NCBI GenBank assembly: GCA_963934255.1
Contig: CAWVXU010000064.1
Location: 1 to 15,053 of the forward strand
Reading direction: 5' to 3'
DNA length: 15,053 nucleotides
Origin: an uncultured Fibrobacterales bacterium
Lineage (GTDB): Bacteria > Fibrobacterota > Fibrobacteria > Fibrobacterales > CAWVXU01
In this document: positions 3,001-15,000 of the stretch, one piece after another
How positions within the stretch are numbered: the first letter of the stretch is position 1
How the letters are laid out: every line of letters starts with the position of its first letter
Position numbers: made by a program

Positions 3001-6000
3001 CGTGAATGGGAAGGCGAGCTTGTTTGGGCTCATTTAGGTTTCAGTCCCAATCAAGTGAAACATTTAAAATTAGACCTTTATGGTGGGTCTAATGATGATG
3101 TCAAGCGGGAAATTACTCGCATTGCAGGTCCGTTGATGGCACAAATGGAGGAATTGCAACCTGATGTCATTACAGTGGTTCAAGACCCTGAGGCTTCAGC
3201 TCCGAGGACTCACTATAGGTGCCTACTTGCTGTGCGTGAAGCGGTGCATTTATATCAAAAAAAATATCCGGAATCGGACTTAAAGGTTTTAACTTATCGT
3301 AATGTTTGGACAAGGTTCCCACTTTCTGAATCCAATATGATTATTCCAGCAAGCTTAAATGATCTAGCTGCTCAAGAAAAAATGTTTGAAAATTGTTTTG
3401 TTTCGCAGTATGTGGCACAATATCCAAGTCCGGGACATGATGGCTCTTTTGCTGAGCTAGCATCAAAGGTATGGATGGAACAATTCGGACAGCTTTCAAA
3501 TCACCTAAATCCTGAAGTATTAACTCAACATAAAGACCCTAGATTCCGAAAAATGGCCGCTGCAATATTCATGAAGGAATATTCTGCGACTGATTTTTTG
3601 AAGATTTTCTAGAATTGTGAACAATAAGAATTTTTGGAGAAAATTTCGATGCATTTTAAACTAGTAGATGACAGCTTATTTAGTCAAGAGATGATCCGTT
3701 TAGTTCCTAAACATTTTAGTGCCACAGAAGGTGTTGAGATTCGTTTTGAACATCGTGATGAGGTAGATGGTTATCATTTTCATAAAAATAACGATCATAT
3801 CTTACTTCAGTATAGTCACTTCTGTGAGGTTCCACACGCTTTAGGTGATATTATCACAATGGAGGAGATTCCTCTTGATGTCCATAAAGAGGCACCTTTT
3901 AACTTCCGCGGTATTATGCTAGATGTTTCTAGAAATGCAGCTGTTCGAGTTGAAGTTTTAAAAGAAAAAATCGCACGATTTAGTTTACTGGGGATGAATC
4001 AATTCTGTCTTTACACAGAAGACATGTTTGAAATTGAGGGAGAACCTTTATTTGGATATGCCCGTGGTGCCTATTCTAAAGTAGAAATACGTGAACTAGT
4101 TGATTATGGTCGCGCTTTTGGGGTGAATCTTTTTCCATGTATTCAAACTTTGGGCCATATGGAGCAGATTCTTAAATACCCTGCTTATAAAAACCTACAA
4201 GATAACGAGTTCATCTATAATGTCTATGCTGATGGTGTCTATGAGTTCATCGCTAAAACTATTGATGCTGCATGTGAAATGTATGATACAAACCTGATCC
4301 ATATCGGTCTTGATGAGACACATGGCTTGGGACGTGGATACGCCTTCAAAGAGGGAGAAGAGATTAATCCTCGTATGATTTATGTTGATCACTTGAAAAA
4401 AATCGTTTCAATGTGTCAAGAAAAGGGTCTACAGCCGATGATGTGGGGCGATATTGTGATCGGATCTACTCAAGGTGAATCTCATATGAAACAAGAAGAA
4501 ATTGACTCACTACCTAAGGGTGTTTTGATGGATTATTGGGACTATCACTCATGTTCGGACGAAACTTACAAACGGGATTTAAAAGATTTCCAAGATATGG
4601 GATATGAAACTTTAGTCTCGCCAGGTGTCTGGTGCTGGAGTCGCTTCTTCCCTGGTTACAAAAAAGCAGAAAACAATATCAGTTCTCTTTTGCAATCGGC
4701 CAAAAAAATGGGTGTTCGCAAAGCCTTAAATACTCACTGGGGTGATGATGGACATGAATGTTTCTTTGATTACAACATCCCAGCCCATGCTGTTTTTATG
4801 GCAAATTGTACAGAACTACGCTCAGAAGATGTCGAAGCGACAGCTAAAGCCAAAGTCAGAGCTGTTTTTGATGTCGGATTTGATGATCTGGTATTAACAG
4901 GTGAAATTGACTGTATTGATGGCTATACTGGCCGAATATTACCTCCAAATATTGGGAAATGTCTTTTTTATGAAGATCCAGTCCAAGCGTTGTTCTCGGG
5001 CGTAGAAGAAGTGAAACCTGAAAAAGAATATTATGCAAAGCTATCTATAAAGTTTGCTGCACTTCAAGCCCAAGGGGATTTTGCTGATTATTTCGAACAA
5101 GCCAAGCTTTTTTGTGACTACTTAACTGTCAAAATTGGTTTAAATGATCAAGCTCGTGCGGCTTATAAAGGTAACGATAAAGCGGCAATGCAAGCATTGA
5201 TTCCAAGTTTTATTGAAGCTCGTAAAATTATGAGTAACTTTAAAAATCTTTATCGCAAACTTTGGCTCAATGAGCGTAAAGCATTCGGTTTAGAGGTCGT
5301 TGAAGGACGTTTAGCGACTCAAATCTCAAGATTTGAGTATTTTGAGCAAATCGCAACAGCTTGGATAAATGATGAATTAAAGCAAATTGATGAGCTTGAA
5401 TTAGAGCATGTCGCTTTCCATCATGGATCAAAAGAAGACGATGAATACAAGTGGCCTGACCACATGCTACATTATTCACAGCTTTTTTCTCGCTCACAAA
5501 ATAAATGGTGGTAGTCCAAAACTACTAATATTTTATATATTCGTTTAAAACCATAAGAACCATAAGAACCATAAGAACCATAAGAAATGGAAGAGATATG
5601 TCCAAATGGAGTAACATCGCAAGCAAGGGAGCACTAGCTGCTTCAATATGCTTAACATTAACTTGGAATTCTTTTGCTGGCTTCAGTGAAGTTCGCGAGA
5701 GAACGAAAGTAATTTTTAAAGAGAAAGAACCTCTTGAGGATCGCTCTAATATTGCTCTTTCATTCGTGGAAGAACGATTAGGTGCCGGCGCTATTGTACA
5801 GGTTTATCCTTGGCCGGACACACCGCGCCCGGGCATGACTGATCTTCAAGGTGCAGACTCTTCTAAATACGCCTTAGAAGTTAGACTAAAACATGATGCA
5901 TGGTCGGGCACTGCTATTTGTTTAGCATCCACCGCCGACTTAACCCCTTATTATGATGAAGGTGCCTTAGAGGTCTGGATTAAAGGTACCAAGGGCAGCG

Positions 6001-12000: not shown

Positions 12001-15000
12001 GACTTCAATCAAATGAACCCAAGTTCAAATGTGATCCTTAATGTTCGTGCAGATGCAGCTATTTCTGAATACTGGAAGGGTGCAGACACTCTGTCCAAAG
12101 CTTCAAAAGTAATTACTTTTATTGATACCTCAATTACTGGTGATGCAACTGCAGGTTTTGACACGACAATTACTACATCTCGTGATACCAACTTTGCCTC
12201 AAGACAACACTTTACTTTGAAAGAAATTGAATCTCGTGATGGGATTGCAATTTTAGTTGAGTTTAATGCTGGTTATAAGATAAACAATGACTCGTATGTA
12301 CTTCGTGGATTTGGGTTAAGTAATGATGATGAGTTTGTTTCAGATCTTGCACAATCTCAAAGCTTCCTAGCGCGTTCAATTCTAAATAGCCAACAAGGTG
12401 GGATCTATCAAGGTCAGTCTTACAATACGATGTTTGATGCACTCTATAACCATGCATTTGTTGTGAATCCTGTAACTGCTCGCACCACCATGGAAACGAA
12501 TTCTCCGGCTGATCCAGCCCAAGAGGGTAAGTATTCTGGGACGAACAATTATTACCGTGCGCATTATGACAAGAATTCATATTCTGGGGTGAACACGACT
12601 CAAGAAGAGCGTGATGCACAATTCCAGTCTCTTTTACCTTACTTCCAAGAAGCACTTCCTAATGGAAAAGCATCTGCTAACCGTGTTGGTGGTCAACTTG
12701 CTCTAGATGTAGATGCGCTTGATAATTTAATTTCTGCAGATGCTCACTTTGGCCAGTTCGAAAATGCAAATTCGCAGCAAATTGGTAATGTTACGACAGG
12801 TATTATGTCTTTCAACCGCTTTGGTGGTGGAATGGTACTGAGACTGGGTAATGTTTTAAATTATGCTGATGGTATTGAATTAAGTGCTGGTATCGGACAA
12901 CAAACTTCTGACATCGAGTTCACTGAGACTTTAGAAGCATCAACAACAGAAAATTCATTCTCTAATGAGTCTTCTTTATATTCCGCTGGTATTAAAGTAG
13001 GCTTCTTACAAGATTTCGAACTTTTGGCTGGTTACCAAGTTCTTGACCATGTATTGGCAGGTCTTGCTGTAACGGAATCAATTGTAGCAGCTGGAGTGAA
13101 TTACAACATGAGCAAAGGTTCTTACCTAACTGCAGAAGTGACTCAAATTAAAGGCGAAAGCTCTAAAACTGAGTATACTCAACTTGTTCCTCAAATGACT
13201 ATGACTGTTAAATTCTAAGCAATAGAAGTTAACACATATCAATGAGTTAAAAATTTAAAGGCAAACACTAAGTGTTTGCCTTTTTTGATTCCATGTTTAA
13301 AATGGTCACCAGTAATTTTTTTTCCTGATTTCATAATGATCGAAATTATAAATTCAGCCAGTTAGTTGGTTTTAAGTAATCAGTTAGCTCAGCTTCTAGT
13401 GATCCTTCTGCGGCCTTCCAGTCATATCTCCAACTCACTTCACTTGGTAAGCTCATGAGGATGGATTCAGTGCGTCCACCTGATTGGATACCAAAATGTG
13501 TACCACGATCAAAAAGTAGATTGAATTCAACATAACGGCCGCGGCGTATTTTTTGGAATTCTCGTTGTTGAGGCGTGAAATCTTTCTGAGCATAGCTTTT
13601 AATAAAAGGGATAATTAAGTTTGGTAAGAGCATCCCTAGGTTTTTACAAAGAGTGAAGTTTGATTCTCGGTCTGTATTCAGGTGATCAAAGAACAAACCG
13701 CCTACACCTCGAGTCTCATCTCTATGTGGGAGGAAAAAGTATTCATCACACTTTTCTTTGAGTGTTTTGTAATCGGACTGATGTTTGCCGCAGAAGTCAA
13801 ACAGCTTCTGATGAAAATCCACAACATCTTCTTTTTTTGTGTAATAAGGCGTTAAATCAACACCACCGCCGAACCACCACTTCTCACCGCATTCAAAGTA
13901 TCTGACATTGAGATGTATAGTAGGGATAAATGGATTTTGAGGGTGCAGTACAATTGAGACACCTGTTGCTTTATATGGCGTGTTTTCTGGTAGTTTCATT
14001 GAAACGAGTGCAGAGGGAGGGAGAGTACCACCTTCAATTGCTGAGAAATTCACACCTGCTTTTTCAAGAATGGAATCATTTTCCCAAAGTCGAGAACGAC
14101 CACCACCTTGCCCCTTGTCGTAATCCCATAGATCTTCTTTATAAACACCTACACCAATATTTTGAAGTTCTTTGATAATATGGTCTTGAACCTTTTTGAA
14201 TTCTTCTTGAATGGTTTGAAAGTCTAACATAATTATACCTGAAGTAGTGAATGAAAAAAAAGGTTTTCAATTGGTCTTAATTAAAAGGTAGTTTTTCAAG
14301 GATCATTTTGAACAATCATTAAACGCTTTATGATTTGTCAAACTCTTATTTCTTAGTTCCTCCCTATCAAGAGCCGATAACTTTAGGAATAGAGGGAATT
14401 ATAATGAATAGAATATTATTATCAGCTTTGACAGGTATGCTTTTTTTTGCTTGTGAAATTTCAAATAAAGAGGGGAGTGTGAGTAATACTCATTCATTTG
14501 ACAATCATAGTGAATTACAAAATGAAGACAATTCAGAAAATCAAAACAATACCTTTGATGTACTTAACCAAGATTCATTAATTTGAAAGCGCTCTGTAGA
14601 TTCTGCCTTAATCGTTGAATTAGAAGATTTACGAATAGGTAGTTTAGCCAAAGTTGAATTGTACTTAGACTTGAATTGTTTTCAAAAAAAAGAATTCCGT
14701 CAGGATCATAAAAATATTCACCCTTTAGTGAGAGCGAGTCAGACCAGGTTTTTTTTGGAAATTGCCCATCAAATGACATTAAGGTTCTAACTATGGTTGT
14801 TATAAACCGGATCTACCGTCTTCTAAATTATTCTATAAAAACCAACCTGTATACAAAGGACAAAGATACCGGGATCCAGTTCCTGACCATAGCGTTGCTG
14901 ATGAAATTGACATCTTCAATTTTATTGAAAAAATAAGTCCTACTGAACATATTCCGATTTACGAAAGTTTTGATATAAAGTAAGGATGTGTATGTAATAC

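Follow-up and report, generated by a model that had tools for sequence, protein, structure and literature searches.

The operon analysed here, from an uncultured Fibrobacterales bacterium, probably provides a route by which beta-1,4-linked oligosaccharides, in this organism most likely chito-oligosaccharides, enter through the outer membrane. As we picture it, secreted GH18 chitinases, whose genes are present, would cut chitin, and the oligomers would then pass the barrels A, B and C, which are predicted to have 22 strands and no plug and whose pores appear to be narrowed by conserved internal loops. The barrels probably work together, possibly as one assembly. The CBM30 protein encoded with them may capture or receive the oligomer, the periplasmic side being at least as likely a place for this. 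After an inner-membrane step, GH20, GH94/GH3 and NagB, for which the genes are also present, would take over; their pathway leads to fructose-6-phosphate. Such a system would operate in the manner of a PUL or of the ChiP/LamB operons and probably by facilitated diffusion, but its barrel family is unrelated.

Organisation of the locus and the CBM30 protein

The window, by which we mean the whole stretch of 15,053 nucleotides that was analysed, carries all genes of this unit on the forward strand. The first of them is probably a NagB-like gene (1615..3612, +; glucosamine-6-phosphate deaminase-like, PRK02122-like) with a probable role in GlcNAc catabolism; its match to NCBIfam NF002557 (E 3e-21) lies below the curated cut-off. 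It is followed on the same strand, after a gap of 21 nt, by the gene of a GH20 beta-N-acetylhexosaminidase (3634..5514, +; alternative ATG start possible at 3649) consisting of GH20 and a GH20C C-terminal domain (Pfam PF00728, PF18088). As this enzyme has no obvious signal peptide, it is probably cytoplasmic. A perfect 9-bp tandem repeat of 4.2 copies (5549..5586) is located immediately 5' of the start of the gene for the stand-alone CBM30 protein (5598..6347, +, 249 aa), and the genes for barrel A (6352..9000, +, 882 aa), barrel B (9015..11072, +, 685 aa) and barrel C (11086..13218, +, 710 aa) follow with intergenic gaps of 4, 14 and 13 nt. All four reading frames translate without internal stops, and we could reproduce the GH20 gene upstream, the CBM30 match (Pfam, E 4.5e-12) and the lack of a family for the three large proteins, all reported in a first-pass annotation. 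Downstream, a hairpin of 12 bp that carries T tracts on both strands (13257..13283), a consensus match only, is probably the terminator that closes the operon against the convergent hemF gene. A promoter scan returned 36 sites versus 35.5 expected. hemF had no cover in three RNA runs, which were picked using the operon as query and therefore rank nothing.

The CBM30 protein has a signal peptide, and a lipobox survey found no lipobox. Its module matches Pfam PF21582 with 46.7 bits (cut-off 27) along part of the profile (42-146 of 170) and, weakly, SGBP_B_XBD (E 0.003). Alignments relate it to the N-terminal CBM30 of CBM30-CBM11-GH51 proteins, and aromatic residues such as W170, W187 and W201 are kept in all three groups; a CBM30 would be expected to bind single beta-1,4-glucan chains. 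It is the orthologue of FSU_2007 (Fisuc_1525) of Fibrobacter succinogenes, a name assigned via the exact sequence of the orthologue at locus L044. At every intact locus the barrels are paired with a CBM30 protein. A complex prediction with barrel B scored 0.24 against a mark of 0.32, which is evidence neither way.

Predicted fold of the three large proteins

AF2 predicts outer-membrane beta-barrels of 22 strands for A (pLDDT 77.6, pTM 0.81) and B (pLDDT 84, pTM 0.84). In both models a single helix, resembling that of OmpM1-type porins, precedes strand 1, while a plug domain as well as POTRA or usher-type periplasmic domains are absent. The A model has large structured loops and the B model two conserved long loops (155-192 and 411-501). 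Closure of both barrels is suggested by whole-barrel alignments to known barrels, among them 22-strand receptors such as FyuA (Z 12.1, rmsd 5.6, 418 aligned). Barrel C, which is present only in the four-gene form of the operon described below, was assigned by the tree, by the name of its orthologue and as a full-length paralogue of B (25% identity over 747 columns, E 1e-40). A and B are likely paralogous as well, although this is not proven, their profile comparison being weak (probability 45, E 2e-4, 581 columns). All three proteins end in a C-terminal Phe. The outer-membrane barrels with aromatic C-termini and the paralogy of B and C, as proposed in the first-pass annotation, are supported; the roughly 24 strands read from its B model had to be corrected, since we count 22 long strands.

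None of the three belongs to a Pfam or NCBIfam family or matches a porin family HMM. The homologue search recovered 72 proteins, as noted before, 70 without a Pfam domain and the named ones from Fibrobacter. A profile search of the protein database gave no further relatives, and a search of named genomes for related loci with a single protein query no locus. When the profiles of A and B were run against the sequences of solved structures, no significant match resulted. Foldseek and VIA searches returned generic barrels only, with tied top rows and 5-12% identity, so that they single out no particular relative, and one in an unlisted family is conceivable; the top Foldseek match of A is AlgE (E 9e-8, TM 0.25), and the match to FimD/PapC is equally generic (TM 0.24-0.30). 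The Plug domain had no match in 25 members of the barrel family, whereas the same scan finds it on the three ordinary receptors of this genome, and PF00593 matched four other contigs of the genome but not the operon contig C64. By language-model features, the nearest named cluster of A and B is DUF6029 (PF19494, Bacteroidota; score 0.95); its HMM matched none of the 25 members at E up to 5, and we regard it as a lead only.

Distribution, neighbouring genes and the Fibrobacter operon

The barrel family is found in 230 of 296 Fibrobacterota genomes and spans the phylum, rather than being restricted to class Fibrobacteria as first assumed; so far it appears specific to Fibrobacterota. The barrels are mostly single copy and near-universal in family f3 (146/151), and the search for them came up empty in 32 of 172 high-quality genomes. 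Two operon forms exist: a three-gene form of two barrels and a CBM30-CBM11-GH51 protein, and a four-gene form (solo CBM30, A, B, C), present here and in Fibrobacter, which digests cellulose in the rumen. Three genomes (G264, G251, G249) carry both, each copy adjoining its own enzymes.

Neighbouring genes argue for import, although transport itself is our interpretation. Of 23 three-gene loci, 14 have a gene for the binding protein or a permease of an oligosaccharide ABC importer no more than 9 kb away (12/21 in the main neighbour survey plus two from separate inspection), and seven of the nine loci without one are interrupted by contig ends. GH94 adjoins 5 of the 21 surveyed loci, GH18 or GH20 none; GH1 is also among the linked neighbours of barrel loci. 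The four-gene form adjoins GH20, GH18 or NagB in chitinase-rich genomes. In family f7, both GH18 and GH20 are found at 4/4 four-gene loci, the orthologous GH20 adjoining the barrels each time. The seven four-gene carriers outside f3 have 10, 14, 8, 17, 15, 15 and 3 GH18, and there is none in 10/10 f7 genomes with the three-gene form only (form read from loci for three and deduced from match scores for seven). The operon form does not fix the substrate, however, since Chitinispirillum, which grows on chitin only, encodes a barrel of the three-gene type (CHISP_0849) and G065 combines 13 GH18 with the three-gene form. The present marine genome (92% complete) has 10 GH18 and no GH5, SusD or Porin_4. 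The earlier view of a conserved operon, with a chitin link in this genome, is supported, and attention is drawn to a lineage of marine Fibrobacterales that degrades chitin. With kin not independent, GH9 occurs outside f3 in 64/64 barrel-positive versus 24/61 barrel-negative genomes, and within f7 in 14/14 versus 1/17. Besides, a GT2 gene accompanied by an LpxA-like hexapeptide acyltransferase gene was seen only near some f3 loci and two f13 loci, outside the operon.

Several observations count against an entry route. No ABC importer adjoins the barrels at 13 f3 loci or in the window, five genomes rich in GH9 (4-11 copies; completeness 93-99%) yielded neither A nor B nor a full CBM30, and the three plugged TonB receptors encoded outside the operon are possible sugar carriers. 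In addition, none of the hydrolase or transporter queries matched a neighbour of the G083 operon, so that the barrels are not "always" beside glycoside hydrolases, as had been claimed.

The operon is orthologous to FSU_2007-2010 of F. succinogenes S85, where the gene order CBM30, A, B, C is likewise kept within FSU_2007-FSU_2012 (Fisuc_1525-1530). Three of these proteins were matched by exact sequence, which bears out the orthology suggested earlier; A corresponds to FSU_2008, C to FSU_2010 and, by position, B to FSU_2009. In S85 a lipoprotein and a GH18 without the catalytic Glu follow and a GH5 gene is divergent, whereas the marine operon is preceded by NagB and GH20. The literature searched gives the Fibrobacter barrels no function and labels them only hypothetical or "membrane protein". 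Fisuc_1526-1528 were found in the outer-membrane fraction, Fisuc_1525 in the medium only and Fisuc_1530 both there and in the outer membrane (PMC4668043 supplement); for the CBM30-CBM11-GH51 protein Fisuc_3111 a periplasmic location is given (PMC4668043). Expression of Fisuc_1526 is near-constitutive (RPKM 427 vs 382; PMC4668043 supplement), which also counts against an entry route, and in published proteomes the operon proteins change only by +1.1 to -1.3 fold. According to published work, it is unknown how F. succinogenes transports cellodextrins, and no receptor barrel was found (PMC6851124 section 7; PMC4668043 discussion). TonB/ExbBD rise on cellulose, and Raut 2019 favours a TonB route, which likewise counts against the barrels.

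In our tree the Fibrobacter operon is sister to the chitin-linked operon and not to the GH51/ABC form, and the GH18 orthologous to the chitin-linked one is kept in Fibrobacter with the catalytic Glu missing in 12/12. The four-gene system of Fibrobacter was therefore probably reassigned to cellodextrins, and the polarity would run from chitin to cellulose; the opposite "retuning from cellodextrins to chitin" of the first-pass annotation is doubtful for this form. On the same sequence basis, the GH18 common to Fibrobacteraceae would seem to have lost its activity; this is relevant to claims of chitin hydrolysis by this family (PMC4704652). A bolder, tentative proposal, which we consider possible but doubtful, is that A, B and C, as 22-strand channels without a plug, join via their N-terminal helices in a hetero-oligomer. 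This would represent a class of glycan importer not described before and would be the route, so far missing, by which cellodextrins (or cellulose chains) enter F. succinogenes. Fibrobacteraceae, which lack the three-gene form and keep the four-gene chitin form, would then have repurposed a chitin system, whose chitinase became a protein that binds cellulose without catalysis. FSU_2008-2010, already present in F. succinogenes proteomes, can in any case be named as candidates for sugar entry with a predicted fold. The question is now testable on purified proteins without Fibrobacter genetics, and chitin-linked and cellulose-linked copies, sometimes within one genome, offer natural comparisons.

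Alternative readings and comparison with known systems

Instead of importing sugar, the barrels might export or anchor surface proteins that bear CBM30 or otherwise bind substrate, serving adhesion and as an enzyme scaffold. The constant pairing with a CBM30 protein and the constitutive expression would suit such a role, and so would the presence of Fisuc_1525 in the medium and of Fisuc_1530 in medium and outer membrane, even though FSU_0382 and FSU_2012 have no listed T9SS signal. We nevertheless consider it unlikely, because it leaves the repeated linkage to ABC importers, GH94, GH1, cytoplasmic GH20 and NagB unexplained, Fisuc_3111 has been placed in the periplasm and the models have neither POTRA nor usher-type domains. 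Long single chains, rather than short diffusing oligomers, could also be threaded through the barrels to the periplasm, or the barrels could be energised by TonB/ExbBD via a partner. Here, the strand number equals that of TonB-dependent receptors, a periplasmic endoglucanase partner would suit chain entry, and TonB/ExbBD induction on cellulose still awaits its receptor. With no plug in the models or by Pfam, and no tonB or exb gene recognised in the subset of neighbours scanned, there is little probability left for this mode.

A general or structural outer-membrane protein whose linkage to sugar genes is historical would explain the mostly single-copy and near-universal occurrence in f3, the constitutive expression and the OmpM1-like helix. 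It is very improbable given the 32 high-quality genomes without barrels, the agreement of presence with GH9 and GH18 content within f7 and the duplicate copies that adjoin different sugar enzymes. We give least credence to polysaccharide export of the AlgE or BcsC kind, to which the top Foldseek match of A and the GT2 gene might point: the fold matches are generic, the neighbours that are conserved serve degradation and import, and GT2 stands outside the operon at its few loci. An AlgE-type exporter was rejected. A fimbrial usher (FimD/PapC) was ruled out as well, as the models have 22 instead of 24 strands and neither a mid-barrel plug nor periplasmic domains; no chaperone or pilin genes were seen among the barrel-locus neighbours scanned.

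The preferred entry route invites comparison with the SusC/SusD utilisome of Bacteroidota PULs, whose functional counterpart the operon had been called. The likeness holds in that a 22-strand barrel and a glycan-binding protein stand beside substrate-matched hydrolases. Membership is ruled out, since the N-terminal plug with its TonB box, a PF00593 match, SusD and a lipobox, and with it a lipid anchor, on the solo CBM30 are all missing; PF07980 (SusD family) had no match in the 92% complete marine genome, where a positive control matched. Moreover, there are two or three paralogous barrels here and no detectable sequence relation, and where strong induction by the substrate would be expected of such a PUL, the published F. 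succinogenes data show changes of only 1.1-1.3 fold. By description, the atypical PUL chu_1276-chu_1280 of Cytophaga hutchinsonii is similar: it combines an endoglucanase and a pair of outer-membrane proteins with a CBM-like binder of the SGBP-B type. It is needed for cellulose use, and orthologues are reported only in Cytophaga and Sporocytophaga, Fibrobacter being unmentioned (PMC12016534).

ChiP, LamB and CymA, through which oligosaccharides diffuse, share with our barrels the plug-less design and the linkage to ABC importers and phosphorylases. These porins have 14-18 strands, and their operons contain binding-protein ABC importers and phosphorylases. Structural matches to them are generic (TM about 0.3), and strand number and family HMMs do not fit a sugar-specific porin of the ChiP, LamB or OprD type. 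Compared with their 310-435 residues (target lengths), the barrels described here have 22 strands and 650-950 residues and occur as paralogues with a CBM partner.

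The barrel operon and its predicted fold

Our data bear out the positions that the first-pass annotation had stated for the four reading frames, which are open throughout, and also its naming of the solo CBM30 protein (5598-6347; Pfam E 4.5e-12). It is followed on the same (forward) strand by A (6352-9000), B (9015-11072) and C (11086-13218), and in agreement with the earlier account none of these three has a Pfam or NCBIfam match, and C is a paralogue of B over its whole length (25% identity). When 25 family members were scanned at E values up to 5, the generic OMP_b-brl was the sole recurring Pfam match (six members, one above cut-off). 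The alignment of A with B is weak (581 columns), and profile comparison revealed a motif after strand 5 common to both.

AlphaFold predicts a barrel for A (60-row alignment; pLDDT 77.6, pTM 0.81) and for B (86 rows; pLDDT 84.0, pTM 0.84). The B model has 22 strands of at least nine residues, fewer than the roughly 24 proposed before, and the A model 21 plus one of seven residues. Judged by sequence pattern rather than coordinates, most strands alternate hydrophobic and polar faces, the polar one holding most of the conserved Arg, Asp, Glu, Asn and Gln. Since a single helix precedes strand 1, the models hold no plug; Pfam likewise detected no Plug in 25 family members, while this genome's three ordinary receptors gave a Plug match in the same search. 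Conserved long loops lie at 155-192 and 411-501 of B and at 196-246 and 580-685 of A; they are mostly well predicted and may narrow the channel. No specific structural relative can be named, as fold searches yield generic barrels only (for B, BT1762-1763 with Z 13.8, rmsd 4.9 and 403 aligned residues, tied with DcaP and OmpM1; for A, FyuA with Z 12.1, rmsd 5.6 and 418 aligned). A, B and C represent a real family, undescribed in the literature searched, for which the models of A and B predict plug-less barrels of 22 strands.

The four genes are preceded on their own strand by a NagB-like gene (1615-3612; NCBIfam match below cut-off) and a GH20 gene (3634-5514; Pfam). A perfect 9-bp tandem repeat of 4.2 copies (5549-5586) ends about 11 nt 5' of the CBM30 start and could act as a regulator or spacer of variable length; a 12-bp hairpin lies 3' of C. 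A PAS-GGDEF-like protein (594-1508, reverse strand), whose GGDEF motif looks degenerate by eye, is encoded divergently from the NagB-GH20-barrel unit and is a possible regulator. The gene for HemF, an oxygen-dependent coproporphyrinogen oxidase (13346-14230, reverse strand; family match above cut-off), is a hint of aerobic life, in contrast to the Fibrobacter of the gut. Metagenome occurrence is marine or seawater in 18 of 19 rows, with at least half of the window's words in five rows from two studies. Metatranscriptome contigs from three studies cover 22, 24 and 18 of 30 bins, and some span A-B and NagB-GH20, which is evidence of presence in RNA libraries and not of one transcript.

Two forms of the operon and their enzyme surroundings

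B has matches in 227 of 296 Fibrobacterota genomes and the A profile, built partly from these same genomes, in 230, nearly always as one copy (both tallies include the unpublished genome G253, which enters no other result here). Families outside class Fibrobacteria are also positive, so the proposed restriction to this class falls; all named relatives and clusters among those found are Fibrobacterota. Forty regions picked for diversity, and a few added later, were surveyed for the form of the operon. The three-gene form combines A and B with a CBM30 protein of 440-1080 aa, usually with CBM11, whose C-terminal domain often matches by Pfam the GH51 arrangement of Fibrobacter succinogenes FSU_0382; the GH51 label of these partners derives from that arrangement (domain list in PMC6851124). 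Many of them carry a lipobox, which is found in 0/18 solo CBM30 proteins. Of 21 three-gene loci, 12 have a gene for an ABC binding protein or permease no more than 9 kb away, and seven of the nine others stop at a contig edge; such a gene is also near both further loci (G251, G249). GH94 is near 5/21, and neither GH18 nor GH20 is near any of the 21.

The four-gene form consists of CBM30, A, B and C, and both forms occur together in G264, G251 and G249. GH18 and GH20 accompany it in 4/4 loci of family f7 and neither is nearby in G083. In Fibrobacteraceae, GH18 is present in 12/13 loci, the remaining one being on a short contig, and GH5 in 10/13, and no ABC importer stands beside any of the 13. 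Between C and GH18, 12 of these loci encode a fast-evolving lipoprotein of 220-320 aa with no Pfam family (for example 14793-15461 of L044, FSU_2011 by position), a candidate surface lid of the barrels.

Outside Fibrobacteraceae, GH9 occurs in 64/64 sampled barrel-positive genomes (of 83) versus 24 of all 61 barrel-negative ones, and within f7 in 14/14 versus 1/17; G005 was scored negative although A matches weakly. Among 80 genomes selected for GH18 counts, the seven four-gene carriers outside Fibrobacteraceae have 10, 14, 8, 17, 15, 15 and 3, the ten f7 genomes with the three-gene form alone have none, and 2/12 barrel-negative f7 genomes have GH18. Since related genomes are not independent, these GH9 and GH18 contrasts are patterns, not statistics. 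The present genome has 10 GH18, one GH20, one GH9 and a GH94-GH3-phosphomutase cluster, and at 92% completeness no match to GH5, SusD or Porin_4; no inner-membrane importer for chito-oligomers was found in it. Within the same family, G085 combines the three-gene form with 10 GH9 and lacks GH18.

Elsewhere in this genome, contig C45 (L073 4817-8579) encodes a GH18 with the active motif, a divergent protein of 337 aa whose C-terminal tail is of T9SS type, and another GH18. In G264 and G252 the orthologues of this active-motif GH18 and of the 337-aa protein stand immediately before CBM30, and the segment looks like a detached front of the barrel locus. The phosphomutase, CBM9, GH3 and GH94 cluster on C12 (L074 7411-13067) is a probable chitobiose-catabolism operon. 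The sole GH9 of this otherwise non-cellulolytic genome (C34, L075 8140-9846) has a T9SS-type tail; a single GH9 is also found in G083, G084 and G252.

Against this reading stand five genomes (G038, G039, G041, G010, G017) with between 4 and 11 GH9, in which neither A, nor B, nor a full CBM30 found a match. G038, G039 and G041, with 10-11 GH9, share a genus with barrel-bearing G040; they may use another route. The form does not fix the substrate, as Chitinispirillum, which grows on chitin only, has a barrel of the three-gene type (CHISP_0849) and G065 has 13 GH18 alongside this form. In L086 (G016), which encodes a protein identical to CHISP_0849, an ABC importer is nearby and the CBM30 partner is shortened, without the later domains. 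Therefore, entry of beta-1,4 oligosaccharides is better supported than a single substrate per form.

Chitin, cellulose and the Fibrobacter succinogenes counterpart

In the A and B trees (FastTree; IQ-TREE quick, SH-aLRT 100, 30 rows after nine near relatives were dropped; midpoint root), a branch with full support separates all four-gene copies from the rest, and these copies divide into a chitin group and a Fibrobacteraceae group. The Fibrobacteraceae operon GH18 is sister to the GH18 beside f7 chitin loci and one GH18 of this genome (SH-aLRT 99). The DxDxE motif carries the catalytic Glu of GH18; this residue is missing from 12/12 Fibrobacteraceae copies and retained in 10/10 f7 copies and the orthologue here. 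The simplest reading of these midpoint-rooted trees is that the four-gene form first served chitin and was then repurposed by Fibrobacteraceae, opposite to the earlier proposal of a change from cellodextrins to chito-oligosaccharides.

Exact-sequence matching identifies L044 proteins with FSU_2007, FSU_2008, FSU_2010 and FSU_2012 of F. succinogenes; no exact match was found for the B orthologue, whose position makes it FSU_2009. As the first-pass annotation had assumed for the CBM30 protein, FSU_2007 corresponds to Fisuc_1525, and interpolation to FSU_2013 (Fisuc_1531) makes Fisuc_1526-1528 the barrels, in line with its choice of Fisuc_1526/7. According to Raut 2019 (PMC6851124), whole-cell chitinase activity is tied to the down-regulated chitinase FSU_2012, which counts against a dead enzyme; this argument is weakened by a second GH18 in G189, which encodes a protein identical to FSU_2012.

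Probable oligosaccharide entry and its rivals

The genes, their order, their neighbours, their distribution and their orthology are observed here, and the barrel folds are predicted; we infer that the barrels probably serve oligosaccharide entry, and import, substrate, barrel assembly and the role of CBM30 are to be understood accordingly as parts of this reading. The outer-membrane location of the orthologues comes from publications: the PMC4668043 supplement records each of Fisuc_1526-1528 both in the outer-membrane fraction and in the medium. There, Fisuc_1525 is in the medium only, and the same source places the CBM30-CBM11-GH51 protein Fisuc_3111 in the periplasm; FSU_2012 is listed as cellulose-binding (PMC6851124). 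That the barrels export or anchor such binding proteins is the chief rival, and an unlikely one next to the repeated linkage with ABC importers, GH94, GH20 and NagB. Energised import or the threading of whole chains would be less likely still; the models hold no plug.

General porins are improbable. They would fit the F. succinogenes operon, which shows almost no expression change between glucose and cellulose (published data, including the PMC4668043 supplement), but within f7 the presence of the barrels follows GH9 and GH18 content, and duplicated copies have different sugar enzymes beside them. Export of polysaccharide through the barrels appears very improbable next to conserved neighbours that serve degradation and import.

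No publication was found for the six barrel locus tags, and subscription journals could still hold part of the claim. The FSU/Fisuc proteins are not described as barrels or importers in the accessible parts of PMC4619616, PMC3079729, PMC13543919, PMC4704652, PMC4814513, PMC12228718, PMC4668043, PMC5553014, PMC6851124, PMC12016534 and the main text of bioRxiv 10.64898/2026.10.06.756956; Jun 2007, Arntzen 2017, Ji 2014 and Zhou 2016 lie outside this scope. In comparison to known systems, the operon most likely works like a PUL or a sugar-porin operon, but the plug-less barrels do not belong to SusC/SusD. The nearest published analogue, likened by its description in the accessible part of PMC12016534, would be the Cytophaga chu_1276-1280 cluster.
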